Assembly: GCA_035488075.1 (NCBI GenBank)
Contig: DATHLO010000053.1
Span: 1 to 26,796, forward strand
Origin: Steroidobacteraceae bacterium
Lineage (GTDB): Bacteria; Pseudomonadota; Gammaproteobacteria; Steroidobacterales; Steroidobacteraceae
DNA: 26,796 bases
Direction of reading: 5' to 3'
Part shown: positions 1,765-25,483 of the stretch, piece by piece
How the letters are laid out: the number at the start of each line of letters is the position of its first letter
How positions within the stretch are numbered: the stretch's first letter is position 1
Translations under genes and position numbers: made by a program
Notes under the pieces: generated by a model
What the model was told of the DNA's origin: nothing
The model's input: the letters and a program-made list of their open reading frames with translations, nothing else
Database searches by the model: none

Positions 1765-4149
1765 TCAGATCGGGTCGTAGCAGCTCACGCTGATGGTCTG
1801 CGTCTGACCGGGGCTCACGCTGATGTCGCGGCGTACGTCGCGGTAGCCCTCGCGTGAACCGATCACCGTATAGCGGCCGGGTTTGAGGTCCACCTCGCGA
1901 CGCGTGAAGCTGCCGAAGGCGCCCACATTCATGATGGTCACCTGCGTGAAGCCATCGGACACCAGCGACAGGTGCACGGGGTGCTCGAACTCCGGCAGCA
2001 GCGCCGAGACGCGCGCCATCTGCAGCCGCAGCACCGGGCCCGGCGAGCCGATCTGCTGCGCGCCCTGCAGGAGCGTCGCCGCCTGCGCCCGCGCGTCCGC
2101 GGACGCCAGCAGGTCGGGTCGATCGATGATCGCCTGCAGGGAATCATTGAGCTCCAGTCGCCCCCGGGCCCGATCCCGGCCCTCCTGGGCGAAGGCCTGT
2201 GACGGATCGGAGCGCAAAATGGCGCTGTAGGCCGTCACCGCATCATCCCAGCGCTCGTCCGCCTCGGCGTCCTCGGCGCGCGTGCGCTGCGTGCCGAAGC
2301 CGCGCCCGCGCATGGCCGCATCGACCCGCCTGAGCCCGTCCGCAGCTTCCGCGCCGTTCGGGCGCACCGCGCGGGCGCGCTCGAATGCGACACGCGCCTC
2401 CTCGAGCCGGCCGGCGCCGAGTGCCGCAAAACCCTCGCCTGCCGCCTTGGCGTAGCGGTCATCGCCGAAGCCCTCGACGGCGGGCGCAGCTGCAGCGGCC
2501 CCCTTCGGGGCAGACGCCGCACCCTTTGTGCCGGTGCTCGCGCCCGTCCCTGCGGCCGCGGCGGTGGTGGCTGCGAGCTCACGCGCGCGGGCCTGCCCGG
2601 CGAGTGCGCGTTGGTCCTGCGGCGCGATGCGAACGGCGAGCTCGTAAGCCTGCAGCGCGAGCGTGCGCTCGTGGTCGGTGAGCGCGCGCTCCCCGGCGGC
2701 AAGTTCGGACGCCAGTGCCGCCGGCGCCGCCTGCTCGACGTTGTCGAGCAGCTGATTGGCCTCGACCATCTGCGTCTGCGCGCTCGCAACACCGCCCGCA
2801 TCGTGCGCGCCCTCCGCCTGTGCTGCCCGGGACTTGGCGGCGGCGAAGTCCTCTCCTGCCCAGATGCCCGCGCCGCGCGCCTCGAGCGCCGTGATGCGCT
2901 GCTCGAGCAGAATGTGGTCTGCTTTCAGCTGCGCCAGCGCGCTCGACTGCAAGGTGGCCGCAGCGCTCGGCGGCGGCGTCTGGGTGGCGGTGCCTGTGCC
3001 GGCCGGCGCCCCGCCCGGGAGCCAGCGCGGCATCCACAGGACGGCCGCGGCGACGACCGCCGCAAGTCCTGCGATGACAAGCAGCGCACGCGGCAGCCCA
3101 CTGCGCATCGGTTCAGGTCGGGAGCGCGGCAGCGGCGCCTCGCGCACCTCTTCCCAGATGCCGGCCCCATCGACATCTCCCGTGAAGGGGGTTGGCGTCA
3201 GCGGGGGCACCGCTTCGGCGGGCACCAGCGGCGGTGCAGCGTGCGGCGAGATCGGTGGCAGCGTGATGCGCTCCTGCGGCGGCACCGTCTCGTTCGCCGC
3301 GCCCGCGGGCGCTTCCTCGTCGAAGTCGAATGTCAGGGTGTCGTTGAGCGAGGCGTCGAGCTCGTCGATCACATCGCGCATGCTCGCCGGCCGGCGCTTC
3401 GGATCCTTCTCGAGCATGGCACCCACCAGGGTGGCCAGCTGCGGGGGAATCTGCTGTGCGGGCACGAGCGGCGGCACCGGCTCTTCCTGCACGCGCTTGG
3501 CATCAAACTGCGGATAGTGCGGCGGGTAGCGCGAGAGCAGCTCGTACGCAAGTGCCCCGAGTCCGTAGATGTCATCCCCGGGGGTCGGCGGCTCGCCGCG
3601 CAACTGCTCGGGGCTCGCGGTGAAGGGCGACAGGCCGCGCACCATCGAGTCCGTGCCCGGATCGAGCGAATCGCCGGAGACGCCGAAGTCGGCGAGCTTC
3701 ACGCGGCCGCGCTCATCTAACAGCACATTGCCGGGCTTAAGGTCGCGGTGGATGACCCCGCGCTCGTGGGCGTGCTCGAGCGCGCGGGCGACCTCGATCA
3801 GCACCGGGACGATCGTGAGGTAGCCCGCGCCGCGCAGGCGCTTCAGGTCCCCGCCCGTTGCCAGCTCCATGGGCAGAAGAAACGTCGTGCCTTCGCGCTC
3901 GGGCGCGAAGACCTTGAGGATGCCCGGATGATCCAGGCGGCTCGCGCTCTCGTACTCGTGCACCAGCGCGACCCACGCTGCGGCACTGCGTCCGGCGGAC
4001 GGATGCAGGATCTTGAGCGCGATATCCGTGCCGTTTTGCGGATCGAACGCGCGCCACACCTCGCCCTGCCCGCCGACGCCGAGTCGCTCGCGCAGGACGT
4101 AGCGGCTGTTCAGGAGCTGCCCGTTGTTTGCTGTCGCCGCCTCGTTCAT
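1765..4149 (-). CDS. Membrane-anchored Hanks-type Ser/Thr protein kinase with periplasmic helical/TPR-like region and C-terminal PEGA-like beta domain
   Basis: LGVGGQGEVW, IALK, HRDLKPGN, ADFG, SPEQ and DIYGLG, then a Pro-rich linker, a TM segment (ALLVIAGLAAVVAAAVLW), Ala-rich helices and the C-terminal VDLKPGRYTVIGSREGYRDV. Confidence 0.92.
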   Translation of the reverse strand: MNEAATANNGQLLNSRYVLRERLGVGGQGEVWRAFDPQNGTDIALKILHPSAGRSAAAWVALVHEYESASRLDHPGILKVFAPEREGTTFLLPMELATGGDLKRLRGAGYLTIVPVLIEVARALEHAHERGVIHRDLKPGNVLLDERGRVKLADFGVSGDSLDPGTDSMVRGLSPFTASPEQLRGEPPTPGDDIYGLGALAYELLSRYPPHYPQFDAKRVQEEPVPPLVPAQQIPPQLATLVGAMLEKDPKRRPASMRDVIDELDASLNDTLTFDFDEEAPAGAANETVPPQERITLPPISPHAAPPLVPAEAVPPLTPTPFTGDVDGAGIWEEVREAPLPRSRPEPMRSGLPRALLVIAGLAAVVAAAVLWMPRWLPGGAPAGTGTATQTPPPSAAATLQSSALAQLKADHILLEQRITALEARGAGIWAGEDFAAAKSRAAQAEGAHDAGGVASAQTQMVEANQLLDNVEQAAPAALASELAAGERALTDHERTLALQAYELAVRIAPQDQRALAGQARARELAATTAAAAGTGASTGTKGAASAPKGAAAAAPAVEGFGDDRYAKAAGEGFAALGAGRLEEARVAFERARAVRPNGAEAADGLRRVDAAMRGRGFGTQRTRAEDAEADERWDDAVTAYSAILRSDPSQAFAQEGRDRARGRLELNDSLQAIIDRPDLLASADARAQAATLLQGAQQIGSPGPVLRLQMARVSALLPEFEHPVHLSLVSDGFTQVTIMNVGAFGSFTRREVDLKPGRYTVIGSREGYRDVRRDISVSPGQTQTISVSCYDPI

Positions 4150-10905: not shown

Positions 10906-12423
10906 TCAGGTGCCAAGAAACATGCGGTACGCCGGATTAGCGGTCTCCTCGACGTACACGTAGTGCAGCTCGTTCAGGTGCAGGAGGAAGTCGGCGCGCT
11001 CACCCGGCGGCACTTGGATGCCCGCCAGCACCCGTCCGTAGTCGGTGCCGTGGTTGCGGTAGTGGAACAGGGTGATGTTCCAGCGTGAGCCGATCGACTG
11101 CAGGAAGCGGTGCAGAGCGCCCGGGCGCTCCGGGAATTCGAAGCGGTAGAGCACCTCGTGGGCGATGCCGCGTGCGTGGCCCCCCACCATGTAGCGCACG
11201 TGCAGTTTCGCCATCTCATCGTCGCTCATGTCGGTGACCGCAAAGTCCGCCGCGCGCAGGCTGCGCAGTACGGCGTCCTTCTCCTCGCGTCCCTGGGTGA
11301 GGGCGAGGCCGACGAAGATCTGTGCGCTGTCGACGCCTGCGTAGCGGTAATTGAACTCGGTGACGCTGCGTGCGCCGATCACCTCGCAGAAGTGCAGGAA
11401 GCTGCCGGGCCGCTCGGGAATCACGACCGCGAGCAGCGCTTCGCGCTCACCGCCAAGATCTGCGCGCTCGGCGACGTGGCGCAGGCGGTCGAAATTCATG
11501 TTGGCGCCGCTGTTGATGGCGATGAGCCGCTTGCCGCGCCAGCCCTCACGCGCCACGTATTTCTTCAGGCCCGCCACCGCCAGGGCACCGGCGGGCTCGA
11601 CGATCGAGCGGGTATCCTCGAACACGTCCTGGATGGCCGCGCAGATCTCATCCGCGTCGGTGAGCACGATCTCATCGACCTGGCCACGACACAGCGCAAA
11701 GGTCTCCTCGCCCACGCGTTTCACCGCGACACCGTCGGCGAAGAGGCCGACGCGCTCGAGCGTGACGCGCCGCCCGGCGCGCAGCGAGTCGTGCATGCTG
11801 GCCGCATCCTGCGGCTCGACACCGATGATCCGCACCCCCGGGTACAGGTATTTCACGTACACCGCGATGCCCGCGAGCAGGCCCCCGCCGCCGACCGGCA
11901 CGAAGATCGCATCGAGGTTGCCGCCGCACTGGCGCAGGATCTCCACCGCGATGGTGCCCTGGCCGGCGATCACGTCCGGATCGTCGAAGGGATGCACGAA
12001 CACCAGTGAGCGCTCGCGCGCGAGCGTCAGGGCCTGCTCGAGCGCACTGTCGTAGTCATCCCCGTGCAGCACCAGCTCCGCGCCGAGATCGAGCACCGCC
12101 TGCACCTTGATCTGTGGCGTGGTCTGCGGCATCACGATGACCGCGGGGATGCCGCGGCGGCGGGCGGCCAGCGCCACGCCCTGGGCGTGATTGCCGGCCG
12201 AGGCGCACACCACGCCGCGCCGGGCGCTCGCCTCCGAGAGGTGCGCGATGCGGTTATAGGCGCCGCGCAGCTTGAAGGAGAACACCGGCTGCAGGTCCTC
12301 GCGCTTGAGCAGCACCTCGTTGCCGAGGCGCCGCGACAGGCGCGGCGCCGCCTCGAGCGGCGACTCGATCGCCACGTCGTAGACGCGCGCCTTGAGAATT
12401 CTCTCGATGTAGGGACTGGCCAC
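10906..12423 (-). CDS. ilvA: Threonine ammonia-lyase, biosynthetic
   Basis: LKREDLQPVFSFKLRGAYN (PLP Lys), SAGNHAQG, VGGGGL, EPAGA and SGANMNF, plus two C-terminal ACT-like repeats (PERPG). Confidence 0.97.
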   Translation of the reverse strand: MASPYIERILKARVYDVAIESPLEAAPRLSRRLGNEVLLKREDLQPVFSFKLRGAYNRIAHLSEASARRGVVCASAGNHAQGVALAARRRGIPAVIVMPQTTPQIKVQAVLDLGAELVLHGDDYDSALEQALTLARERSLVFVHPFDDPDVIAGQGTIAVEILRQCGGNLDAIFVPVGGGGLLAGIAVYVKYLYPGVRIIGVEPQDAASMHDSLRAGRRVTLERVGLFADGVAVKRVGEETFALCRGQVDEIVLTDADEICAAIQDVFEDTRSIVEPAGALAVAGLKKYVAREGWRGKRLIAINSGANMNFDRLRHVAERADLGGEREALLAVVIPERPGSFLHFCEVIGARSVTEFNYRYAGVDSAQIFVGLALTQGREEKDAVLRSLRAADFAVTDMSDDEMAKLHVRYMVGGHARGIAHEVLYRFEFPERPGALHRFLQSIGSRWNITLFHYRNHGTDYGRVLAGIQVPPGERADFLLHLNELHYVYVEETANPAYRMFLGT

Positions 12424-12484: not shown

Positions 12485-14635
12485 TCAGCGCTTGTCGTTG
12501 CTCTTGCGCACCACGAAGCGGTACTGCTGGCGCCCGATCGACACGCTGTCGCCGTCCTTGAGTATCTGGCGGGTGACGCGCCGGCCGTTGACCTGCACGC
12601 CGTTGGTGCTGTTCAGATCCTCGATGACCGTCTGTGCCGGCCCGGCGAGGATCACCGCGTGGTGGCGGCTGATGAACTTCGCATCGATCTGCAGATCGTT
12701 GTCGGGGGTGCGCCCGACGCTCGTCTTGCGCCCGAGCACGTGCACAATCTCGCGCCCGTCCTGCTGGTAGATGAGCAGCCGCGTCGCCCCTTCCGGCAGC
12801 GGCGCCGCGGGCGACTCGGCCGCATCCGACTCGCGCAGCATCGGATGAACGCTGGTCTCGGCGAGGCTCGGGCGTGCCTCCTCCCCCGCAGCACGCCACT
12901 GCTCATTGGCCTGCTCGAGTTCCTCGACCCGCACGGCGTGCTTGCGCGCGTCGGACTCCAGCCGGTGCACGGCCTCCTCTGCCGCGGCGAGATCCGCCTC
13001 CAGATCCCCCACCCGCACGGCGTGCCCGAGACTGGTCGTTTTGAGGGCCGCCAGCTCCTCGTAGTGCTCGGCGGCGAGCCGCTCGGCCTCCCGGGCGCGC
13101 GCCTCGGCGGCGGCGAGCGTCGACTGATACGTGCTGCGCTCCTGGTGCACGCTCTTGAGCGCACTGCCCCAGTCCTCCATCTCGCGCCGCAGCGTGCCCA
13201 GCTCCTCCTCGAGCACCTGGGTGCGCTTGCGCTCCTCGGCGAGCGCGCTTTCGAGTTCCACGCCGCGCGCGCGGCGCTGATTGAGTGCCACCTCGTGCTC
13301 GGCCGCCTGCGCGGCGGCCGCGCTCGCGCTGGCGCGCGCGGCCTCGACCGCCGTGGTGAGATTCACCCGCTCGGTGAGCAGGCGGCTCAGCTCGCTCTTG
13401 CGCTGCGACTCGGTGGTGTTGTGCTGTTCGGTGACCGCGGTCAGCGCGCGGATACGCTCGCCGCTGGCCTCCAGCTGCGCCTGCAGGAGGGCGATGTTGC
13501 CGTGCAGCCCCTGCGCCTCGCGCCGCCCATCGCGCAGCTGGGCATCACGCTCGGCGAGGGCTGCCCCGAAGGAGGTCACCTGCTGCTCGAGCTGCTCGAT
13601 GCGCGCGGCGCGCTCGGCGAGCTCCGCGTCCTGCTCGCGCAGGCGCGCCTGCGCGACCACGAGCTGGTGCGCGAGCCGGGTGAGGTCGCTCTCGCGCCCG
13701 TGCGCTTCCTCGTGCAGGTCCGTCACGAGATTCTCGAACAGCGCGCGGCGGCTCTCCACGCTCTGCAGGGACTCAAAGTAACTCATGGCGCGGGCCCGCT
13801 CGGCGTGCAGGTCCGCCATGACACTCACCGTGTGCGCAGCGTGCGCGCGCTCGCGCTCGGTGCGCTCCTGCTCCTCGAGCAGCTCGCGGGCGCGCTCGGC
13901 CTGCGCCGCCTGCGCCTGCTCCTGCAGGCGCTGATCGAGCTGCGCCGACTGCGCGGTGGCGCCGCGCAGCTGCTCACGCGCCGTGGCGAGCTCCGCCTCC
14001 AGCTGCCGGATGCGTTGTTCGGCGCCGGTGCGTGCCTGGGTGAGTTCGCTGAACTGCGCGGCGTGCTGTGTCGCAGCTCCGCGCAGGCGCGCGAGTTCCG
14101 CATCCAGCTGCGCGGCGCGCTGCTCGGCGGCGGCGCGCAACTCCACGAGCGTGCTGGCGGTGGCGTCCCCGCCGGCGCGCAGATGCGCAAGTTCGGCGGC
14201 CACCCCCGCCGCGCGCTGTTCGGCACCGAGGCGTGCCTGCGTGAGTTCCGCGACCTGGGCGGCGTGTTGGCTGGCGTGCTGGGCGGCGGCCGCTTCCAGC
14301 CGTGCCACCGCCGCGGCCGACTCGAGCGCGCGCTCCTCCGCCGCGGCGTGCGCGGCGCGGGCTTCCTCGCGCTCGCGCTCGAGCTCACTGAGCCGATCGG
14401 CCTTGCTGTTCAGCAGCTGTTGCGCGGAGCGCAGCTGCCCGGACATCGCCTCGAGCGTCTTCTCCAGGTGCTGCTCGTGATCGGGGCGCAGCTGCGGCAG
14501 TGCCGCCCAGGTATCCGTACTCGTATGCTCGTCCGCGAGCGCAGCCGGCACCGGATCGAGCACCGGCAGCTCGGCCGTGCTGTCCAGATCGGCCTCACCG
14601 GAGGCCGGCGGCGGCGACATCGAACGAGAACTCAT
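12485..14635 (-). CDS. Long coiled-coil protein with C-terminal FHA domain
   Basis: About 550 aa of A/E/L/Q/R heptad sequence followed by VGR...ISRHHA...DLNSTNGVQVNG (FHA G-R, S-x-x-H and N-G residues intact). Confidence 0.9.
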   Translation of the reverse strand: MSSRSMSPPPASGEADLDSTAELPVLDPVPAALADEHTSTDTWAALPQLRPDHEQHLEKTLEAMSGQLRSAQQLLNSKADRLSELEREREEARAAHAAAEERALESAAAVARLEAAAAQHASQHAAQVAELTQARLGAEQRAAGVAAELAHLRAGGDATASTLVELRAAAEQRAAQLDAELARLRGAATQHAAQFSELTQARTGAEQRIRQLEAELATAREQLRGATAQSAQLDQRLQEQAQAAQAERARELLEEQERTERERAHAAHTVSVMADLHAERARAMSYFESLQSVESRRALFENLVTDLHEEAHGRESDLTRLAHQLVVAQARLREQDAELAERAARIEQLEQQVTSFGAALAERDAQLRDGRREAQGLHGNIALLQAQLEASGERIRALTAVTEQHNTTESQRKSELSRLLTERVNLTTAVEAARASASAAAAQAAEHEVALNQRRARGVELESALAEERKRTQVLEEELGTLRREMEDWGSALKSVHQERSTYQSTLAAAEARAREAERLAAEHYEELAALKTTSLGHAVRVGDLEADLAAAEEAVHRLESDARKHAVRVEELEQANEQWRAAGEEARPSLAETSVHPMLRESDAAESPAAPLPEGATRLLIYQQDGREIVHVLGRKTSVGRTPDNDLQIDAKFISRHHAVILAGPAQTVIEDLNSTNGVQVNGRRVTRQILKDGDSVSIGRQQYRFVVRKSNDKR

Positions 14636-14745: not shown

Positions 14746-15465
14746 TCAACCGCGAAGGAAGTCGCGAACTGCCTCGGACAGCCGAGCGGGCGAGTGCGCC
14801 AGCAGTGCCTCACCGCTGAGCTCCAGATCCATCATCCGGGCGGCCGGCAGCACGTCACGCACGCGCGCGGTGGCTTCCCAGAGGTCATCCTTGGGGCGCA
14901 GCACCAGCAGTTTCTGGGGAAGACGGGCCAGCCGCGCGCGCACTCCACCCTCACCCAGCGCCTCGAGCACCCAGCGCTCGAGCTCGGGCCGCTCGGGCGC
15001 GGCGCTGCCCGTGGGGCGCTCTCCTGGCGCGGGCAACGGCACCGACACCATGACGATGCGGCTGACCTGCCCGGCGCGCGCGATGGCGAGTTCTGCGCCG
15101 AGCAGCGCCCCGGCGCGCACCCCCAGCACGTCGAGCTTGCGCAGGCGCATGTTGTCCAGGAAGTCCCCGAGCGCGCCCACGTAGTCGGCGAGGGAGGGGC
15201 GCGCCAGAGGTCCGTCGGATTCGCCGAACCCGGGCAGGTCGGGGGCGTAGACCGAGCGCTCGCGACCGGCCAGGGCCAGAAACGGGGTGAAGGTGCGCCC
15301 GGATCCGGGGCAATCGTGCAGGCACAGAAGGGGCGTCCCTTCCTCGAATCCGCCCCCGGGCGGCATGGCGTTGTGCAGGTGCAGCTGGCCATAACGGCTC
15401 TCGAAATAGCCGCGCCGCACGCGGGCCGAGGCGGCGGCGGCCGGCTTGGGAGTCGCTTTGGGCAT
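14746..15465 (-). CDS. Alpha/beta hydrolase-fold protein lacking the canonical catalytic residues
   Basis: RRGYFESRYGQLH, PLLCLHDCP, VYAPDLPGFGESD and LDVLGVRAG at the nucleophile elbow. Start is ATG 15465 (15474 is an alternative). Confidence 0.8.
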   Translation of the reverse strand: MPKATPKPAAAASARVRRGYFESRYGQLHLHNAMPPGGGFEEGTPLLCLHDCPGSGRTFTPFLALAGRERSVYAPDLPGFGESDGPLARPSLADYVGALGDFLDNMRLRKLDVLGVRAGALLGAELAIARAGQVSRIVMVSVPLPAPGERPTGSAAPERPELERWVLEALGEGGVRARLARLPQKLLVLRPKDDLWEATARVRDVLPAARMMDLELSGEALLAHSPARLSEAVRDFLRG

Positions 15466-15560
15466 GGGCAACATAGTGCCACGATCGCGGCTTTTGTTGC
15501 GTCGCGGGCGCGCCTGCGTAGAGTGGTTGCGTTCCGCTTCGCCCGGGGGGTTCACAAAAC

Positions 15561-15773
15561 ATGCACCGTGTACTGGGCTTGGCAGTGCTCGTGTCTTTGC
15601 TGAGTGGCTGCGGCGTCGCCGGCACCGGCGCGGCCGGCGCGAGCGCGGCTGCCGCCTCCGCCGATGAGGCCGCGCAGGCAAAGAAGATCGAGGAGCGCGT
15701 GCCCCAACAGGTGCAGGCGGCCGAGGACGCCGCCGCTCAGCAGCGCAGCGACGCGGAGAAACAGGGACAGTAA
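15561..15773 (+). CDS. Small Ala-rich lipoprotein of unknown function
   Basis: Basic N-terminus, hydrophobic core and lipobox LLSGC (Cys17). The ORF fills the gap between two genes on the opposite strand. Confidence 0.75.
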   Translation: MHRVLGLAVLVSLLSGCGVAGTGAAGASAAAASADEAAQAKKIEERVPQQVQAAEDAAAQQRSDAEKQGQ

Positions 15774-15800
15774 GGCGCGCGGCGCCGTTGCACCGCGACG

Positions 15801-15835
15801 GCCGCCGCCGCACAGGACTCCGGTGCGGCGGCGGC
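15801..15835. terminator. 13-bp perfect inverted repeat between convergent genes (candidate bidirectional terminator or stabilising hairpin)
   Basis: GCCGCCGCCGCAC (15801-15813), 9-nt loop, GTGCGGCGGCGGC (15823-15835). No U-tract on either side. Confidence 0.55.
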
Positions 15836-15843
15836 TACGGTTA

Positions 15844-16896
15844 CTAGCGTCTGCGGCCGCGCTTGGCGCGGGCGCGCTTCTTCGGACTCGCGCGCCGTGC
15901 ACTCTTGCGCGCGGCCTTCCTGGGCGCGGCCTTGCGCTTGGCAGCCTTGGCTTTCTTGCGCGCGACCTTTTTCTTCGCCGTCTTCTTCTTGGGTGCCGCC
16001 TTCTTCTTGGGTGCCGCCTTCTTCTTCGCAGCCTTCGCGGGCTGCGTCGCTTTCGTCGCTGGCTTCGCGGCGGGCGGTTTCGCGGGGGTCACTGCCAGCG
16101 TCGCTTTCGATGTGGCCGCAGGCTTGGGCGCGCTCATCGTGCGCGGGGCTTCCTGAACGGCGAACGCGCCGCCCTGCGGATCCAGGAACAGCGCGATCCA
16201 GCTGCCACCGGGCACCTCGATCGGTCCATGCAGCAGACGCCCGCCGGCCGCCTTGGCGGAGGCCACGGCCCGGTTGGCATCCGCGACGTGCACGTAACTC
16301 AGCCACGACGGCGGCGTCGAGGGTCCTTGTGTGTTGCAGATACCACCGACGCCTGCGCCGCCGTGCTCGAACAGCTGGTAGACGCCCATGGCGCCCATGT
16401 CGTGGCCGACGCCTTTGCTCCAGCCGAACAGCTGGCCGTAGAAGCGCAGGGCCGCGGCGACGTCCGTGGTCTGAAGTTCATGCCAGGAGAAGGCCCCCTG
16501 CTCCGGGGACGGACCCGGCGGCGGACCGCTCGGGGTGAAGACCGCGAAGGTCGCGCCTTGCGGATCGGCGAGCACCGCGAAGCGTCCGACGTTCGGGATG
16601 TCGGTGGCCGCCTTGCAGATACGCGCGCCCAGGCCCTGGGCCTGCGCGCAGGTGGCATCCACGTTGGGCGTGCCGACATACACGAGCCAGTGCGCCGGCG
16701 TCCCGCTGGCATCGGCCGGCAGCGCCATGAGGCCCCCGACCTGCGTCCCGCCGGCCATGAATATCGTGTAGCCGGGCATATTGGAGGGCTGCGTCCGCCA
16801 CGGCACGACCTTCGGATAGAAGGCGGCGGCGGCGGCCGTGTCAGTCGTCAACAGCTCGTGCCAGATGAATCGTCCACGGACCTCGGCGTTGCTCAT
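15844..16896 (-). CDS. Tandem VOC (glyoxalase/bleomycin-resistance-like) protein with Lys/Ala/Pro-rich C-terminal tail
   Basis: Two repeats of WHELxTTD...AAxxFY...W + HW/WLxYVxV...GG...DPQG[AT]F, then a 97-aa basic low-complexity tail. Confidence 0.9.
   Translation of the reverse strand: MSNAEVRGRFIWHELLTTDTAAAAAFYPKVVPWRTQPSNMPGYTIFMAGGTQVGGLMALPADASGTPAHWLVYVGTPNVDATCAQAQGLGARICKAATDIPNVGRFAVLADPQGATFAVFTPSGPPPGPSPEQGAFSWHELQTTDVAAALRFYGQLFGWSKGVGHDMGAMGVYQLFEHGGAGVGGICNTQGPSTPPSWLSYVHVADANRAVASAKAAGGRLLHGPIEVPGGSWIALFLDPQGGAFAVQEAPRTMSAPKPAATSKATLAVTPAKPPAAKPATKATQPAKAAKKKAAPKKKAAPKKKTAKKKVARKKAKAAKRKAAPRKAARKSARRASPKKRARAKRGRRR
15983..16018. repeat. Perfect 18-bp tandem duplication encoding AAPKKK x2
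   Basis: TTCTTCTTGGGTGCCGCC at 15983-16000 and at 16001-16018. Confidence 0.9.
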
Positions 16897-16966
16897 GGTG
16901 AGACTTCCTCTTGTTGGCGCGCGACCGCTTCGACGATCGGCGCGACATTCTGCCCTGCCCCGCGCG

Positions 16967-17861: not shown

Positions 17862-20513
17862 TCAGCCGGCCGCGTCCGCCTCCGGGGGCGTGCCGACCAC
17901 CGCGTGCGCGGGCTTGCCGGGCGAGCTCAGCGGACGATAGCGGGTGCCGAGCAGGCGCGCCGGCAGCGGGAAGGCGCTGGCGAGGGAGACCACGAGCGAG
18001 GAGGCATACGGCACCGACTGCACCAGCAGCACGATGATCCATGCGAGACGGTCGGGACCGGCGTTCTGCTGCGTGCCGGTGCGGCAGACCCCCCAGGCCG
18101 AGACCAGTAGCCCGATCATCATGAGGCTCTCCTCGCGCGCGGCGGCGAGCGCATGCCACAGGCCGGAGGTCTCGCCTTGCTTGGGCGTGCGGAAGAACGG
18201 CTCGCCCTTGGTGAGCAGGCCCTTGATGGAGGCCATGCCGATGGTGTGCGTGAGCGCAAGGCCTGCGATGGCCGCGGCGAGGGTCTGGCGCACGTTGGCG
18301 CCCACGCGCACGCGGTACAGGTGCACGAGTTTCGCGAGCTTGAAGGTGAAGAGCGACAGCGGCAGCACCGAGTACATGACGAGCGGCGGATCGACACTGC
18401 CGGGGGCCCAGATCATCGCCGCCGACCAGCCGAGCGCTGCGAGGTTGAAGAGCATGTTGCAGCCATCGGCGATCCAGGGCAGCCAGCCGGCGATGAAGTG
18501 ATAGCGCTGACCGGGCGAGAGCGGACCGCCCTCCAGAAACAGCGTACGCGCGTGCGCCTTGAGGATCTGCATCGCCCCGTAGGCCCAGCGGAAGCGCTGC
18601 TTCTTGAAATCGATGAAGGTGTCGGGCATGAGCCCGCGGCCGTAGGTCTCGGGCACGTAGCTCGCATCGTAGCCGTGCTCGAAGATGCGCAGGCCGAGTT
18701 CCGCATCCTCGGTGATGCACCACTCCGCCCAGCCGCACTCATCAAGCTGTGCGCGGCGCACCATGGTCATGGTGCCGTGCTGGATGATGGCGTTGCGCTC
18801 GTTGCGCGTGATCATGCCGATGTGGAAGAAGCCGCGGTATTCGGCGTAGCACATGGCCTTGAAGGCGCTCTGGTGCGCGTCGCGATAATCCTGCGGCGCC
18901 TGCACGATGGCGATGCGCTGATCGTGAAACGCGGGCGTCAGGTCGCGCAGCCATGCCGGCTCGACCACGTAGTCGCTGTCGATCGCGGCGACGATCTTGA
19001 CATCCGGCGCGGTGCGTGCGAGCGCGTAGTTGAGCGCGCCGGCCTTGAAGCCGGCGAGCGGGGCGACGTGGAAGAAACGAAAGCGCGGCCCGAGCTGCCG
19101 GCAATGTGCCTCCACCGGGCGCCAGACGTTCTCGTCCTTGGTGTTGTTATCGATCACCAGCACTTCGAAGTCCGGGTACTCCAGGCGCGCGAGTGCATCG
19201 AGCGTTTCGATCAGCATGGCCGGCGGCTCGTTGTAGGCCGGCACGTGCACGGAAACCTTCGGCGGCGTGACGCTCGGGGTATAAACGGGCGCGCCGAGGC
19301 GGCGGCGGTAGGACACCCAGTGTGCCTCGGCCCACTCGTGCGCCTCGGCGAGCAGCACCAGCAGCACACCGAGCATGCCCAGCAGCAACAGCACGCCTGC
19401 GATCACGCTCGAGACGGTCATGTACTGCTGCGTGAAGTCGTAGATGACCCACACGGCGAGCGTTGCGGCTGCGTACACCACCAGCGCGAGGAAACTGCGG
19501 CCGCGATTGCGCAGCGCCTCGCTGTTGAGGTAAAGCAGCCCGAGCAGCAGCAGCGACACCGCCACCGACACCGCCGCGAGGATGTGCCACTCGGGCACGC
19601 GCACGATCGGCGCGGTGAATTCGAACTTCGGTTTGCGGTTCACGTCATACACGCCCCAGTACGAGCCGACCGCGCCTTCCATGAACGCCTTCCACGGCTG
19701 ATCGAACGCTTCCATGACGTAGTAGGTGATCTGCTCCTTCTGCGCGCGCGCGAGGAAGCGGCGCAGGAACAACGCCTCGTTCGCCTCGGAGGCGACCGCC
19801 GACTCGTGCGTGCGCCCGCGGCTTGGCCAGCCGATTTCCGCCACCACGATCGGTTTGTGCGGGAAGGTCTTCTGCAGGCGCTTGAACTGCGCGAGCGAGT
19901 ACTCGATCGCCTGATCGACCGGCACCCCCTCCCAGTAGGGCAACAGATGCACGCCGATGAAGTCCACGTGCTGCGCCAGCTCCGGGTGCGTGAGCCAGGT
20001 GTTCCAGGTCTCCGCCGTGCCCACCGGCTGCTCGATCGCCGCACGCGCGCGGTCGAGGAATTTTTCGAGCTCATCGAGCGGCAGATCCCCGCGCAGCAGC
20101 ACCTCGTTGCCGATGAACACGCGCACGACGTTCATGTGGTTGGCGGCGAGCCGCACGGCCGTCTGCAGCTGCTGCTCGTTCTTGTCGCGGTGATCATCGA
20201 GCCAGACGCCGATGGCGACGTTCATGTCACGCGCCTCGGCGAGCTCGGGAATATCCGCCAGCGTCCCCTGCACGCTGTAGGTGCGCACCGCGTGCACCTT
20301 GCCCTGCAGCAGTTGTAGGTCCGAGTCGATCTCCTCATCGGTCGGCAGAATGTTGTGGGTCGGATCCTCGTTGGCGCGAAAGGGCGAGAAAGCGAAGCCG
20401 GAGATGACTTTCGGCCACGGCGGCTCCTTCGTCGGCCGATTGAGTAAGGCCCACGCGGCGAAGGTGAGCAGCGCGAACACCGCCGCGATCAGCAGGCTCG
20501 GAATCGTTTTCAC
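17862..20513 (-). CDS. ndvB: NdvB-like (Pseudomonas-type) periplasmic beta-glucan synthase: GH17 domain fused to GT2
   Basis: GH17 with GNE (acid/base) and AEIGWPS (nucleophile), TM segments, then GT2 with PAYNE, IDNN, IDSDY, FKAGALN, TED and QRFRW. GTG start. Confidence 0.87.
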   Translation of the reverse strand: MKTIPSLLIAAVFALLTFAAWALLNRPTKEPPWPKVISGFAFSPFRANEDPTHNILPTDEEIDSDLQLLQGKVHAVRTYSVQGTLADIPELAEARDMNVAIGVWLDDHRDKNEQQLQTAVRLAANHMNVVRVFIGNEVLLRGDLPLDELEKFLDRARAAIEQPVGTAETWNTWLTHPELAQHVDFIGVHLLPYWEGVPVDQAIEYSLAQFKRLQKTFPHKPIVVAEIGWPSRGRTHESAVASEANEALFLRRFLARAQKEQITYYVMEAFDQPWKAFMEGAVGSYWGVYDVNRKPKFEFTAPIVRVPEWHILAAVSVAVSLLLLGLLYLNSEALRNRGRSFLALVVYAAATLAVWVIYDFTQQYMTVSSVIAGVLLLLGMLGVLLVLLAEAHEWAEAHWVSYRRRLGAPVYTPSVTPPKVSVHVPAYNEPPAMLIETLDALARLEYPDFEVLVIDNNTKDENVWRPVEAHCRQLGPRFRFFHVAPLAGFKAGALNYALARTAPDVKIVAAIDSDYVVEPAWLRDLTPAFHDQRIAIVQAPQDYRDAHQSAFKAMCYAEYRGFFHIGMITRNERNAIIQHGTMTMVRRAQLDECGWAEWCITEDAELGLRIFEHGYDASYVPETYGRGLMPDTFIDFKKQRFRWAYGAMQILKAHARTLFLEGGPLSPGQRYHFIAGWLPWIADGCNMLFNLAALGWSAAMIWAPGSVDPPLVMYSVLPLSLFTFKLAKLVHLYRVRVGANVRQTLAAAIAGLALTHTIGMASIKGLLTKGEPFFRTPKQGETSGLWHALAAAREESLMMIGLLVSAWGVCRTGTQQNAGPDRLAWIIVLLVQSVPYASSLVVSLASAFPLPARLLGTRYRPLSSPGKPAHAVVGTPPEADAAG

Positions 20514-20534: not shown

Positions 20535-20954
20535 CTACCAGCTGCCGCTGTTGGGCATCGACTTCCACGGCTCGGCGGGCGCGAGGGACTCGCCCTTCTG
20601 CAGCAGTTCGATGGAGATGTTGTCCGGGGAGCGCACGAACGCCATGTGGCCGTCGCGCGGTGGCCGCAGAATCGTCACGCCGTGCTCGGCGAGGCGCCGA
20701 CAGGTGGCGTAGATGTCATCGACCGCGTACGCCAGGTGGCCGAAGTTGCGCCCGCCGCCGTAGTTTTCCGGATCCCAGTTGTGGGTGAGCTCCACCTGCG
20801 CGCTCTCATCGCCGGGCGCGGCGAGGAATACCAGCGTGAAGCGCCCGCGCGGGTTCTCCTGGCGCGCGAGTTCCCTAAGTCCGAGCGCGTCGCAGTAGAA
20901 GCGCAGGGAGGCGTCGATGTCGGTGACGCGGACCATGGTGTGCAGATACTTCAT
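20535..20954 (-). CDS. gloA: Lactoylglutathione lyase (glyoxalase I)
   Basis: MKYLHTMVRV, FTLVFL, VELTHNWD, FGHLAY and AFVRSPDNISIELLQ. Start moved to ATG 20954. Confidence 0.9.
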   Translation of the reverse strand: MKYLHTMVRVTDIDASLRFYCDALGLRELARQENPRGRFTLVFLAAPGDESAQVELTHNWDPENYGGGRNFGHLAYAVDDIYATCRRLAEHGVTILRPPRDGHMAFVRSPDNISIELLQKGESLAPAEPWKSMPNSGSW

Positions 20955-20976: not shown

Positions 20977-22977
20977 TTAGTTGTTGTCGCGCGGTGCGAT
21001 GCCAAGCGCGTGCTCGATGCGCGCCGGTTCGTAGAGCTTGCCGCCCTTCATCACCAGTTCCACGTTACGGATATCGGCGATGTGCGTGCTCGGATCGCCG
21101 TTCACCAGGATCAGGTCGGCGAGCTTGCCGGGCGCGAGCACGCCGCGTTCGCCGCTCTGGCCGATCACCTGCGCGGAGGTGAGCGTCGCCATGCGCAGCA
21201 CCTCGGCGGGCGCGATGCCGGCGCGCACATACAGCTCAAGCTCGTGATGCAGTTCATAGCCGGCCACCGAATCGGTGCCCGGGATGAGGGTCACGCCGGC
21301 CTCGTGCAGCGCCTTGATGAGCGCGAGCAGCGCCGGCAGCGCCGCGCGATACGCCGCTTCCTCGCCCGGCGGCACCGCCAGTGCTCCGGAGAGCATGCCG
21401 CGGCGCACCTGGGCCGGCATGCGCGGGGCGATCCTCTCAAGCCCCGGGGTGACCGCCGCCGGGTCGCCGCAGAAGAGTGCCTCGAAGACATTCACGGTCG
21501 GGTCGAGCACTGTGTGCTGGCGGCGCAGGTAGGCGATGAAGGCCTGCACCTGCGGCTGCTCGGGCCCGAACTCGCGCGCGTGCGCGGCGACCGCGGTGAA
21601 GCGGTTCATGTTGCGGGTTTCCTTGACGGTGTCGAAGAGGAAGTCGAGCACGACGAAGTTGATGTGCTGGATCTCATCGGCGCCAGCGGCGACGAACTGC
21701 TCGGCGCTCATGAGCGCGGGCACGTGGCCACTCACGCGCAGGCCGCGCGCGTGCGCTTCATCGGCGATGACCGCAACCAGCGCCGGGGGCACCGAGGAGT
21801 AGATCTTGATCTGTCCGTAGCCGTGCTCGGCGTACCAGTCGACGTCCTTCAGCGCCTCCGCAGCGGAGGCGACGCGCATCTTGGTGGGCCCGGCGTACGG
21901 TCCGGTGCCATCGATGATGCCCGCCTTCCACACGCGCGGCCCAAGCTCGGTCCCGGCGTCAAAGCGCGCCACGCGCTCGAGGAACTCGTCGGTGTCGTTC
22001 GCCATGTCGCGCGCGCTGGTCACGCCGTTGGCGATATCGAGCACCCCGATGTTGTCGCCGAAGTGCTGATGGTTGTCCCACAACCCCGGCATCAGGAAGC
22101 GCCCGTGCGCCTCGATCACTTCGGCGCCCTCGGGCACGGGGATCTCCGCATCCGCGCCGACGCGCACGATGTGCGCCCCGCGCACCAGCACGCTCGTGCC
22201 GGAGGTTACGCTCAGATCGCGCGGATCAAAGAGGCGTGCGTTGCGGATCAGCACCGCGGCGGCGGGCACGTGCGTCTGCTCCTGCGCGAGGCGCGCGAAC
22301 CAGGCGCTGCTCGCCTGCGACTGCGCGGCGAGCAGTTGCGGCAGCAGCGCGTGCGTGCCGGGCGCGAGGACCGAGAACCAGTCCGACACGATCGCCGCCG
22401 TCGCCCCGTCGCGCCGCAGCCAGATCGGCGTCGGCGAGAACTCAAGGCCGCTGATCCGGTACTGGATGAGCTCGGAGGCCGCCCCGTCTGTTGCCAGCGG
22501 GCCGGCCTCCGCGATCGTCGCCTCGCCCGAGGGCAGCAGCGCCAGATGATGCTGCGGCGCCTTGAGCAGTGCGCGCGCGAGCACGCCGAGGAACTCAGGC
22601 GGCGCATTGGCCGGTACGTAGAAGGCGCCCGCCGCAGCCTTCTCACCGTGCTCCACGCGGTTGTGCCAGGAAGCGCGGCCGCCGCTCACGCGGAAGGTCT
22701 CGCTCACCGGCGCCTTCATGTAGTCGCTGCCCTGGCCGCTGTACTCGCTCGGCAGCCCCGACGCATCGAGCACCCAGTGCGCGACGATGTGATCGCCGCG
22801 CCCGCGATCGTTGTAGGAGAACTCCGCGCCCGCCGTCCTACCCTGCGGCGCGGTGAGGGTCTGCGAGCCTGCGGGGTTGCCGAGTATCAGGATCTCATCG
22901 GTGCGCGTTGCGGCGAGGGCTGCGCCGGCGGCGAGCAGGCCGAGCAGGAGCGCGTGGCGGCCGAGCGCAGGGGGCAT
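20977..22977 (-). CDS. Exported metal-dependent amidohydrolase family protein
   Basis: Signal peptide, extra N-terminal domain, then MPGLWDNHQH (HxH), QIKIY, SGHV, QHI, PGTDS and GKLADLILVNGDP. Confidence 0.87.
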   Translation of the reverse strand: MPPALGRHALLLGLLAAGAALAATRTDEILILGNPAGSQTLTAPQGRTAGAEFSYNDRGRGDHIVAHWVLDASGLPSEYSGQGSDYMKAPVSETFRVSGGRASWHNRVEHGEKAAAGAFYVPANAPPEFLGVLARALLKAPQHHLALLPSGEATIAEAGPLATDGAASELIQYRISGLEFSPTPIWLRRDGATAAIVSDWFSVLAPGTHALLPQLLAAQSQASSAWFARLAQEQTHVPAAAVLIRNARLFDPRDLSVTSGTSVLVRGAHIVRVGADAEIPVPEGAEVIEAHGRFLMPGLWDNHQHFGDNIGVLDIANGVTSARDMANDTDEFLERVARFDAGTELGPRVWKAGIIDGTGPYAGPTKMRVASAAEALKDVDWYAEHGYGQIKIYSSVPPALVAVIADEAHARGLRVSGHVPALMSAEQFVAAGADEIQHINFVVLDFLFDTVKETRNMNRFTAVAAHAREFGPEQPQVQAFIAYLRRQHTVLDPTVNVFEALFCGDPAAVTPGLERIAPRMPAQVRRGMLSGALAVPPGEEAAYRAALPALLALIKALHEAGVTLIPGTDSVAGYELHHELELYVRAGIAPAEVLRMATLTSAQVIGQSGERGVLAPGKLADLILVNGDPSTHIADIRNVELVMKGGKLYEPARIEHALGIAPRDNN

Positions 22978-24824
22978 CAGAACATCTCCGCGGGTCCGGG
23001 CGGCTTGATGTCGACCTTGGTGCGCGAGGGAATGAATTCTCCGGTGATCATCTCATCGTAGCTCTGCCCCGGACCCACCATCGGGTAGACACCCGCGTCC
23101 GGGTCGATCATCACTTCGAGGAAGGCCGGGCCCTGGAAGCCCAGGAACTCCGCGATCACCCGCGGCACGTCTTCTTTGCGCTCAAGCCGCGTCGCGTAGC
23201 GGAAACCATCCGCCTGCGCCGCCTTGATGAAGTCCTTCTTGTGCAGCGAGCGATCGCTCGCCGAGAGGCGCCCCTTGAAGAACAGCTTCTGCCACTGCTT
23301 CACCATGCCGTCGCCGAAGTTGTTGAGCACCACCACCTTCACCGGCAGGTCGTAGGTGGTCACGGTCTCCAGCTCCCCGATGTTCATGCGGATGCTCGAG
23401 TCGCCGTCGATGTCGATCACAAGGCGCGCCGGACAGGCGATCTGCGCGCCGATCGCCGCCGGCAGACCAAAGCCCATGGTGCCCATGCTGCCGGAGGTGA
23501 GCCACAGGCGCGGCGCGACGAAGTCGCAGTACTGCGCCGCCCACATCTGATGCTGGCCGACGCCGGTGCAGATGATCGCCTCGCCGCGGGTGTGACGGTT
23601 GATCTCCTCGATCACGTAGTACGGCTGGATCAGCGGGCTCGCGCGATCGTAGTTCATGGCGTACACGCGCTTGAGTTCGGCGAGCTCGGCCGCCCAGGCG
23701 CCAAAGTCGCGGCTGAACTTGACCTCGCGCCCGTGCGCGCTCAATGCCTCAAGAGCGGGGGCGACGAGGCCCACGTGGCTCCACTGCACGCGCTTCACCT
23801 TGTTGACCTCGGCGCGGTCGACGTCCAGGTGCGCGATGCGCACGGCGTTGCGGGCGAACTTCTCCGGCACGCCCGCGACGCGGTCATCGAAGCGCGCGCC
23901 CACCGCGATGAGAAAGTCGCAGTCATCGACCGCGTAGTTGGCAAAGGCCGCGCCGTGCATGCCGAGCATGCGCAGCGCCAGGGGGCGGCTCGTGTCGTAG
24001 GCGCCGATGCCCATGAGCGTGGTCACCACCGGCAGGCCGAAGGTGGTCGCGAAATCCGCGAGCGCCCCGGCCGCGTTGCCGTTGATCACCCCACCGCCCG
24101 CATAGATCAGTGGCCGGCGCGACTCATCGAGCATGGCGAAGAAGCGCGCGGCCGCGGGGGCCTCGAGGGCCGCCTCGGCGAGCTCGCGCATGCGGCGCCG
24201 GTAGCCGGGGATCGGCAAGAGGCCCTCGCCGCGAAAGCTCCCCTCCCAGGTCTGCACGTCCTTGGGGATGTCGATGACCACCGGTCCCGGGCGTCCGGTG
24301 CGGGCGATCTCGAAGGCCGTGCGCACCGTGGATTCGAGTTTTTCCGGATCGGTGACGAGGAAGATGTGCTTGGCGACCGAGCCCATGATCGAAGGCACGG
24401 GCGCTTCCTGGAAGGCATCCGTGCCGATGGAGGCGCGGGGCACTTGGCCGCAAATCACGACAATAGGGGTCGAATCTGCCATGCAGTCGCGCACGGGTGT
24501 AACAGTGTTCGTCGCGCCGGGTCCGGAGGTGACCAGGCACACCCCCACCTGGCCGCTCGCGCGGGCGTAGCCGGCCGCCATGAACCCGGCGCCCTGCTCG
24601 TTGGCCGGCACGATGAGGGGGATGCGGGGCTGACCGAGCTCAGCGGCGGCCTCGTTATAGAGGAATACCGCGTCGTAGGTCGGCAGGATTGCCCCGCCGC
24701 TGTAGCCGAAGATGGCCCGCACGCCCTCATCGGCCAGCACCTGCATGATCATGCGGGCGCCGCTCATGCGCTCGCCGGCGAGCGGGTGGCCCACCGGCCG
24801 GGGCTGGATCACTGTGTCGGTCAT
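22977..24824 (-). CDS. ilvB: Acetolactate synthase (AHAS) large subunit
   Basis: FGYSGGAILP, NEQGAGFMAAGYAR, TSGPGATN, FQEA, GVGQHQMW, SGSMGTMGFGLPAAIG and the ThDP motif DGDSS...NN. Start ATG 24824 is likely. Confidence 0.95.
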   Translation of the reverse strand: MTDTVIQPRPVGHPLAGERMSGARMIMQVLADEGVRAIFGYSGGAILPTYDAVFLYNEAAAELGQPRIPLIVPANEQGAGFMAAGYARASGQVGVCLVTSGPGATNTVTPVRDCMADSTPIVVICGQVPRASIGTDAFQEAPVPSIMGSVAKHIFLVTDPEKLESTVRTAFEIARTGRPGPVVIDIPKDVQTWEGSFRGEGLLPIPGYRRRMRELAEAALEAPAAARFFAMLDESRRPLIYAGGGVINGNAAGALADFATTFGLPVVTTLMGIGAYDTSRPLALRMLGMHGAAFANYAVDDCDFLIAVGARFDDRVAGVPEKFARNAVRIAHLDVDRAEVNKVKRVQWSHVGLVAPALEALSAHGREVKFSRDFGAWAAELAELKRVYAMNYDRASPLIQPYYVIEEINRHTRGEAIICTGVGQHQMWAAQYCDFVAPRLWLTSGSMGTMGFGLPAAIGAQIACPARLVIDIDGDSSIRMNIGELETVTTYDLPVKVVVLNNFGDGMVKQWQKLFFKGRLSASDRSLHKKDFIKAAQADGFRYATRLERKEDVPRVIAEFLGFQGPAFLEVMIDPDAGVYPMVGPGQSYDEMITGEFIPSRTKVDIKPPGPAEMF

Positions 24825-24967
24825 GGGCGCGCTTCTTGGCCTCAAACGCTAAGCCGTTCGAAAAAACTCGAAGGGATGGGCGAGCCTAGCAGCTTGGCCT
24901 GTAGGTGCAAACTTGGCCCGATCCTTTATTCTGCAGCAGTTTCCTGAAGCCTTTCCCTGAAAAGCGC

Positions 24968-25483
24968 ATGCGCCACATCATCGCCATCCTGCTGCAGAAC
25001 GAGGCCGGGGCCCTCACCCGTGTCGCCGGGCTTTTCTCCACGCGCGGCTACAACATCGAGTCGCTCTCGGTCGCGACCACCGATGACCCGACCGTGTCGC
25101 GCCTGACGCTCGTCACGAGCGGCTCGGATCCGGTCATCCAGCAGATCGTCAACCAGCTGAACAAGCTCGTGGACGTGGTGAACGTGCTCGACATGACGCG
25201 CGGGGAGCACCTCGAGCGCGAGCTCGTGCTGCTGAAGCTGCGCGTGGCGGCCGGCGAGACCGATGCGGTGCGCGGCCAGGTGGTGCGCAGCGGCGGCCGG
25301 GTGCTCGATCCGGCCAGCGAAGGGTTCATCGTGGAGCTGACCGCGAGTGAGGCGGAGGTGAACGGCTTCGTCGCCGAGCTCGCGCGGCGCGCCGAGCTGC
25401 TCGAGGTGGTACGCAGCGGCGCGCTCGGGATCAGCCGCAGCGCGCGCCCGCTGCGGGTGCGGGCCGCGCCGGCGACCCTCTAG
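24968..25483 (+). CDS. ilvN: Acetolactate synthase small (regulatory) subunit
   Basis: MRHIIAILLQNEAGALTRVAGLFSTRGYNIESLSV...QLNKLVDV...ERELVLLK...EVVRSG (IlvH/IlvN type). Start ATG 24968. Confidence 0.95.
   Translation: MRHIIAILLQNEAGALTRVAGLFSTRGYNIESLSVATTDDPTVSRLTLVTSGSDPVIQQIVNQLNKLVDVVNVLDMTRGEHLERELVLLKLRVAAGETDAVRGQVVRSGGRVLDPASEGFIVELTASEAEVNGFVAELARRAELLEVVRSGALGISRSARPLRVRAAPATL

Follow-up and report, generated by a model that had tools for sequence, protein, structure and literature searches.

The 26,796-nt stretch of DNA analysed here (positions 1 to 26,796 of contig DATHLO010000053.1, assembly GCA_035488075.1 of a Steroidobacteraceae bacterium; hereafter the window) encodes on its minus strand a 350-residue protein (P0001, 15844..16896), in which a core of two VOC domains is followed by a strongly basic, histone-H1-like tail. 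The architecture had been pointed out in a first-pass annotation made from the sequence, and our analysis shows a genuine and ancient fusion in which the charge of the tail is maintained by selection. We read the protein as a ligand-binding VOC protein of the Rv0577/KbpA type that is tethered by its tail to a cellular polyanion and may serve in aldehyde or electrophile defence, and we give this reading as a whole a probability of about one half. Double-VOC proteins and H1-like tether tails are both known kinds, and their fusion is a new variant within them.

The core comprises residues 1-252 (16141..16896, minus strand), and the tail comprises residues 254-350. The interval to which the first-pass annotation had assigned the tail (15844..16137, minus strand) contains exactly the final 97 codons and the stop codon. 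As had been described there, the tail features 28 Lys and 12 Arg and is free of Asp and Glu; it further contains 30 Ala, 11 Pro, 6 Thr and 4 Ser, and its net charge is +40. It begins as a Pro/Ala-rich spacer of low charge and ends in a Lys/Arg-rich part. Lys makes up 29% of the tail, which is an 11-fold enrichment compared to the long open reading frames (ORFs) of the genome (2.6% Lys, 10.4% Asp + Glu). By arithmetic from the latter share, the chance of finding 97 residues without an acid is approximately 0.896^97 = 2e-5. The Lys codons are 23 AAG and 5 AAA in a genome of 70% GC, a bias that opposes mutation pressure. When 1,638 C-termini of the genome, called heuristically, were compared, that of the VOC protein was the most basic, with a charge of +22 over the last 40 residues (next highest value +18, mean +1.3, standard deviation 3.3). 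Third-position GC amounts to 0.82 for the codons of the tail and 0.86 for those of the core. It thus stays at the coding level through the tail, indicating that the reading frame is coding throughout.

An 18-bp tandem repeat encoding KKKAAP units was found at 15977..16026 on the minus strand (period 18, 2.8 copies, 96% matches, Tandem Repeats Finder). It includes an exact duplication, in agreement with the perfect 18-bp duplication noticed earlier; outside this array, the tail is non-repetitive Lys/Arg/Ala/Pro sequence. A 96% identical relative (P0002) is shorter by 6 residues, corresponding to one KKKAAP unit fewer. The number of units therefore varies between near-identical relatives, and repeat slippage is one source of tail length change. 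In the AlphaFold2 model, the tail shows no secondary structure and has a predicted local distance difference test (pLDDT) score of 53-66. The tails of four relatives (P0274, P0292, P0324 and P0223) carry a precomputed match to HC2 (PF07382), a histone H1-like nucleoprotein, to which the likeness is compositional.

Of the 120 top database homologues, nearly all have 304-404 residues, and nearly all end in a Lys/Arg/Ala/Pro tail with no more than three acids; the few that do not, P0067 and P0114 among them, are truncated or frameshift-like entries. An orthologue set was assembled from 80 species-representative genomes, all of which are metagenome-assembled genomes (MAGs) from soil labelled Steroidobacteraceae, Gammaproteobacteria or Proteobacteria. 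The tail is present in 72 of the 73 complete orthologues, with a length of 87-172 residues and a net charge of +31 to +56, and the one exception contains masked bases. Absence or frameshifting of the tail in close relatives, which the first-pass annotation had named as grounds for doubt, was thus not what we found.

A search for further VOC-VOC proteins with basic tails, also suggested at that stage, was performed with the core only over 1.8 billion cluster representatives. About half of the nearest 150 clusters (50% identity clustering; core identity 40-67%) have basic tails of 45-270 residues, and the remaining clusters stop at most 10 residues past the core. Core columns alone were used for a maximum-likelihood tree, in which a single group of 61 rows takes in 59 of the 63 tailed ones, with a Shimodaira-Hasegawa-like approximate likelihood ratio test (SH-aLRT) value of 94. 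Four changes suffice to explain the distribution of tails on this tree compared to 30 for shuffled labels, which reflects deep retention and is not a count of independent events, since kin share labels. The tailed proteins form essentially one old clade. When 150 other gammaproteobacterial families were sampled with one genome each, a full-length double-VOC relative was detected in five. Four of these end at most six residues past the core; one of the four, G098, is an unpublished genome, on which the conclusion does not depend. In the fifth (L138), the core is extended by 93 residues, and this extension is not basic. A tailed double-VOC gene with 54.5% core identity was also observed on a 3.9-kb contig of a MAG labelled Candidatus Eisenbacteria (L123, GCA_035935255.1), an occurrence that could result from gene transfer or a binning error.

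Comparison of the tails reveals what is kept. The Lys:Arg ratio ranges from 42:2 to 13:27 among the orthologues, with at most seven acidic residues. Tail length varies three-fold and net charge clusters near +40; for 112 tailed homologues, the coefficient of variation is 0.22 for charge versus 0.32 for length. From the first to the last quarter of these 112 tails, the charge density rises from 0.11 to 0.52 and the Pro + Ala share declines from 0.53 to 0.27, while the extreme end is Arg-rich and often reads ...GRRR. Hydrophobic residues are almost lacking and aromatic residues are absent among the 112 tails, which disfavours an amphipathic membrane helix. Selection on the tail acts on charge and not on sequence, and we regard the tail as almost certainly functional. 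We also considered whether the tailed cores are more acidic and balance the charge of the tail within the molecule. This idea was rejected, as the core net charge is -8.5 for tailed proteins versus -13.2 for tailless relatives.

The core is a member of the VOC superfamily according to family models and modelled secondary structure. Pfam assigns residues 17-120 to PF18029 (Glyoxalase_6, 53.9 bits) and residues 140-242 to PF00903 (Glyoxalase, 53.5 bits), both above the respective cut-offs, which confirms the two VOC domains of the first-pass annotation; Ble-like_N (PF22677) was matched with 29 bits (cut-off 24.5). AlphaFold2 models the core with a pLDDT of ~95-98 as four beta-alpha-beta-beta-beta modules. 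The top structural match in Foldseek is 3oxh, the structure of Rv0577 (template modelling score, TM, of 0.85 by target; root-mean-square deviation 2.2; 30% identity; E 3.8e-25), and phmmer against the PDB yielded the same entry at 1e-34 across both domains. The core is therefore of the Rv0577/KbpA double-VOC type in both sequence and fold. AbxF (8stb, 9jt3, 8eo9) is the second-best structural match (24% identity, TM 0.82 by target). The sole NCBIfam match is KbpA, AfsK-binding protein (NF053614, residues 12-248, 3.3e-23). Its score of 82.6 bits is below the cut-off of 250 bits, and the protein does not qualify as a KbpA equivalog.

Each VOC domain was aligned with the GloA protein of the window itself to locate counterparts of the glyoxalase I (GlxI) metal ligands. 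The first His corresponds to Trp12 and Trp138 (an invariant Trp), the second His to Leu71 and Leu199, and the last Glu to Ala118 and Ala246; the counterpart position of the first Glu is uncertain. The glyoxalase I models TIGR00068 and NF050074 gave no match to P0001, which places it outside the GlxI family. The core residues conserved in the family are mostly aromatic (Trp12, Trp33, Tyr43, Trp70, Tyr73 and their equivalents in the second domain), with a few acids in addition. In our interpretation, they are more in keeping with a ligand cleft than with a Ni/Zn glyoxalase site. No core residues specific to the tailed clade were found; tailed and tailless cores conserve the same residues, indicating that what the tail contributes is location rather than a new function of the core.

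Among known proteins, Rv0577 (CFP32) shares the two-domain VOC core, but its PDB chain (251-282 residues) stops there. Rv0911 is a paralogue of Rv0577 and, by description, a homologue of the protein studied here. The Streptomyces protein KbpA is similar in that NF053614 matches the core; it differs in the score far below the equivalog cut-off and the lack of an adjacent kinase gene here, and the profile (231 positions) spans the core only. AbxF shares the core fold. According to its PDB title it forms the spiroketal of an anthrabenzoxocinone antibiotic, its chains (213-245 residues) end with the core, and no polyketide genes are located near the VOC gene. GloA and the bleomycin- and mitomycin-binding VOC proteins have the superfamily fold in common with the core, which also has the Ble-like_N match; unlike in GloA, the GlxI ligands are replaced, and a true gloA is encoded separately. 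Sequestration of genotoxins of the bleomycin or mitomycin type, as suggested in the first-pass annotation, would be no more than an analogy inside a very broad superfamily, with the generic N-terminal motif of PF22677 as its one link.

The tail has its own set of counterparts, and its composition is that of tails shown to bind DNA or polyphosphate, which bears out the earlier comparison to non-specific DNA-binding tails. The KPAA-rich tail of AlgP binds DNA, places AlgP on polyphosphate granules and is needed for granule spacing, and PhaF has the same role for polyhydroxyalkanoate granules and binds DNA (PMC9239181). Like the VOC tail, these C-termini of Pseudomonas proteins are Lys/Ala/Pro-rich, acid-free and disordered and consist in part of short tandem repeats of strain-variable number. 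They differ in their partner, which is a helical domain or a phasin and not a VOC pair, and the VOC tail differs from the KPAA arrays in having only 2.8 repeat units, an Arg-rich end and zero Pfam matches. The basic tail of FrzCD from Myxococcus xanthus has been shown experimentally to bind the nucleoid without sequence preference (PMC5716589). FrzCD likewise has a basic tail on a cytoplasmic non-DNA protein, but this tail is N-terminal and sits on a chemoreceptor. A literature search found no paper on a VOC protein with such a basic tail.

A link to methylglyoxal is suggested by the gene neighbourhood and by the literature. The first-pass annotation had noted gloA in the same gene run, and the linkage proved to be stronger than noted. 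The gene (20535..20954, minus strand, upstream of the VOC gene) encodes a true glyoxalase I, in which the His/Glu/His/Glu ligand motifs are present; PF00903 was matched at 6.8e-24, glyoxalase I chains of the PDB at 1e-30 to 2e-22, and TIGR00068 with 109.6 bits, which is under the cut-off of 120. Such an upstream, same-strand gloA recurs in at least 62 related loci, separated from the VOC gene by two genes, by a single gene (L031, L050, L055) or by none. In two distant tailed relatives (L119 and L122, core identity ~41% and 54%), gloA ends 25-55 bp before the VOC gene. Based on this adjacency, the gloA-VOC pair looks ancestral. In Mycobacterium tuberculosis, Rv0911 protects against methylglyoxal and lowers the mutation frequency (bioRxiv 10.1101/2024.11.03.621721), and its expression is induced by SigG, a sigma factor that responds to DNA damage (PMC3776920).

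Taken together, we propose a cytoplasmic protein of the Rv0577/KbpA type, in which the two VOC domains would build aromatic-lined ligand clefts without the usual GlxI metal site. The disordered tail would act by charge, not by sequence, and hold the protein on an abundant cellular polyanion, for which the nucleoid is favoured and RNA, ribosomes or polyphosphate granules are alternatives. The Pro/Ala-rich spacer would give the folded core some reach about its point of attachment. A small molecule, reactive or aromatic, is the most likely ligand or substrate of the core, and the gloA linkage together with the Rv0911 phenotype points to defence against 2-oxoaldehyde (methylglyoxal-type) electrophiles, which would be carried out close to nucleic acid. 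A tethering tail is the best reading of the C-terminus. By analogy with the systems named above, attachment to a polyanion is probable; that this polyanion is DNA, for which the case is made by AlgP, PhaF and FrzCD, would have somewhat less than even odds. A role in electrophile or genotoxin defence is possible rather than probable. We consider it a long shot that the clade is obligately chromatin-bound, with a cofactor-poor VOC protein on the nucleoid that scavenges or converts methylglyoxal-type electrophiles, or repairs early adducts, right at the DNA, alongside soluble GloA and possibly an EamA exporter.

Several observations weigh against the tethered, electrophile-directed protein. The replacement of the GlxI ligands in both domains makes a GloA-like reaction unlikely, and the nearest characterised relatives are functionally unrelated to each other, with kinase binding for KbpA (by NCBIfam name) and spiroketal formation for AbxF (by PDB title). 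Residues 254-350 gave zero family matches against Pfam up to E = 10. The linkage to gloA is real, but it is confined to a single broad lineage and could reflect gene order kept by descent; four further tailed relatives, also distant, lie in unrelated neighbourhoods. In a sample of 61 genomes from across the GTDB family, the VOC gene was detected in no more than 22 (48%-identical query, E <= 1e-30). Furthermore, basic tails also occur in the same genome on adenylate kinase, SucD, acetyl-CoA synthetase, topoisomerase I and the ribosomal proteins L3 and S2, and the N-terminus of a DksA-like protein is extended by a basic stretch. About half of 30 genomes of the family have the tail on adenylate kinase (70-160 residues). 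Since these tails sit on unrelated enzymes, a tail alone does not point to DNA-related chemistry, and the lineage-wide habit weakens any inference specific to the VOC protein. It may be that the lineage adds basic disordered tails to many cytoplasmic proteins, either for partitioning into a phase rich in RNA, DNA or polyphosphate or for solubility, in which case the tail would be uninformative on the VOC core. We regard this as unlikely. The VOC tail is retained far more regularly (72 of 73) than that of adenylate kinase (about half), it is the most basic C-terminus of the genome and marks one deep clade, and the double-VOC relatives from the other gammaproteobacterial families are tail-less in four cases and carry a non-basic extension in the fifth. 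It stands out from the other tails of the genome as the stronger and more constant one.

The tether could also be directed at polyphosphate granules or at RNA and ribosomes instead of the nucleoid. AlgP, with the same kind of tail, is located on polyphosphate granules and organises them (PMC9239181), a PPK2-like protein, recognised from its sequence only, is encoded on contig C44, and recognition by charge only cannot tell polyanions apart. On the other hand, DNA is the most abundant fixed polyanion, and AlgP and FrzCD both bind it, so that we find the alternative distinctly unlikely. The core might instead be a KbpA-like regulator binding a Ser/Thr kinase or an FHA partner, with the tail placing a signalling module. 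KbpA as the sole NCBIfam match, the PDB title of 3oxh ('kinase inhibitor homolog'), an FHA-domain gene located two genes further downstream (66 of 80 loci, and L122 as well), and a Ser/Thr kinase gene in the window (1765-4149) are in line with this proposal. It conflicts with the score far under the cut-off, the distance of 12 kb to the kinase gene, the retention of the gloA-VOC pair without an FHA gene in L119 and the conserved aromatic cleft residues, which suit a small ligand; we therefore judge it improbable. Methylglyoxal attacks proteins mainly at Lys and Arg. The first-pass annotation had accordingly offered the tail itself as the active part, a sacrificial store that soaks up methylglyoxal, and the forty Lys and Arg residues and the linkage to gloA would agree with that. 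We reject this proposal and leave it a very small chance, because the side chains of one protein are stoichiometrically trivial, the Lys:Arg ratio drifts as stated above though both residues react very differently, and similar tails are present on unrelated enzymes. An artefact, be it from a frameshift, the loss of a stop codon or faulty assembly, has virtually no probability. It is refuted by the homologue set, in which the same architecture occurs in hundreds of independent assemblies; the coding-type third-position GC runs through the tail, and independent RNA-library contigs cross the core-tail junction without indels.

If the chromatin-bound reading is true, the protein would be part of a spatially organised, DNA-proximal detoxification system in bacteria, and a nucleoid-bound VOC protein would suggest how the Rv0911/Rv0577 family lowers mutation rates. 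The double-VOC family of Rv0577, Rv0911 and KbpA is widespread and tied to virulence and methylglyoxal tolerance in M. tuberculosis. A large and old subfamily with a tail of the polyanion-binding type and linkage to gloA hints at where this family acts, and the comparison of tailed and tailless proteins offers a simple experimental handle on it. The case also adds to a little-described pattern of ordinary cytoplasmic enzymes with histone-H1-like tails in uncultured soil lineages, which bears on the membrane-free organisation of the bacterial cytoplasm. If the tail is a lineage habit only, the result is an ordinary annotation refinement, namely a VOC family protein with a disordered basic C-terminus.

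The neighbourhood of the VOC gene is conserved in the order glycosyltransferase family 2 (GT2)/glycoside hydrolase family 17 (GH17) synthase, EamA transporter, VOC-tail protein, alpha/beta hydrolase and FHA protein. Among the 80 related loci, 76 have the EamA gene, which lies upstream of the VOC gene; the GT2/GH17 gene is found in 69, the FHA gene in 66 and the hydrolase gene in 52. In the window, the EamA-family transporter (PF00892; 16967..17857, minus strand) lies directly upstream of the VOC gene with a gap of 70 nt. It is preceded by the gene for an 883-residue protein with a GH17-like region and a family 2 glycosyltransferase (17862-20513, minus strand), which resembles beta-glucan synthases. 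Some relatives lack the GT2/GH17 synthase, the EamA gene or both between gloA and the VOC gene, and judging from gene order the glucan synthase and the transporter look like later insertions between the two. VOC gene and gloA sit in a frame of ilvA (10906-12423; threonine dehydratase), the FHA gene (12485-14635) and ilvB/ilvN (22977-25483; acetolactate synthase), and they are likewise located between ilvA and ilvB/ilvN in L119 and L122. The FHA protein is 716 residues long and contains a coiled coil.

Downstream of the VOC gene and convergent with it, an ORF of 70 residues with a lipoprotein-type signal (..LLSGC..) is located at 15561-15773 on the plus strand; L122 has an opposite-strand gene of 70 residues in the same place. 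The ORF overlaps the first ~85 codons of the long 355-residue ORF of the alpha/beta hydrolase (14746-15813, minus strand). Based on this overlap, the hydrolase probably starts further downstream, near 15482.

The other basic tails were located in the genome bin (G000; 75% complete, 3% contamination). Acid-poor, Lys/Arg-rich C-terminal tails are present on adenylate kinase (C37:2916-3815, minus strand), on SucD, the succinyl-CoA synthetase alpha subunit (C133:2-325, plus strand), and on acetyl-CoA synthetase (C5:2-2077, minus strand, continuing at C216:3-230, plus strand); the tails of all three are in the range of 55-85 residues. The DksA-like protein, topoisomerase I and a protein of 277 residues are encoded at C265:4542-5348 (minus strand), C183:2453-5030 (minus strand) and C241:2731-3562 (plus strand). 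Topoisomerase I and the 277-residue protein have basic C-terminal tails, and the latter is, as a guess, phasin-like. The basic N-terminal extension of the DksA-like protein, approximately 70 residues long, recalls DdbA of Streptomyces (PMC3643593). Ribosomal protein L3 is encoded twice, by differing copies that each have a basic tail (C200:775-1507 and C251:2631-3387, both minus strand), and the bin probably mixes two related strains or species.

A Shine-Dalgarno-like GAGGA (16906..16910, minus strand) lies 9 nt 5' of the ATG of the VOC gene, and homologues begin with an identical MSNAE/D N-terminus, in which no signal peptide was seen on inspection. Two GC-rich hairpins (15776..15835, minus strand; -49.4 kcal/mol, z = -2.9 versus shuffles) follow directly past the stop codon, in the gap of 70 nt before the convergent small gene. 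They have no U tract and are absent from the output of the consensus terminator scan, but possibly mark the transcript end of the VOC gene. For this gene, the consensus scan yielded neither a sigma-70-type promoter nor a canonical terminator.

Contigs from four soil RNA libraries cover the VOC gene with 90-99% identity. One contig of 526 nt (~97% identical) spans the core-tail junction (15995-16518) with zero indels, and three further contigs cover the tail end. As DNA is possible in such libraries, these contigs are neither proof nor a level of transcription and give weak support for an unbroken, expressed gene. A high RNA-library depth at 15995-16036 (up to 127, run X18) stems from Lys-codon repeats of other organisms. 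This pile-up seems to show that transcripts with Lys/Ala-rich repeats are abundant in soil.

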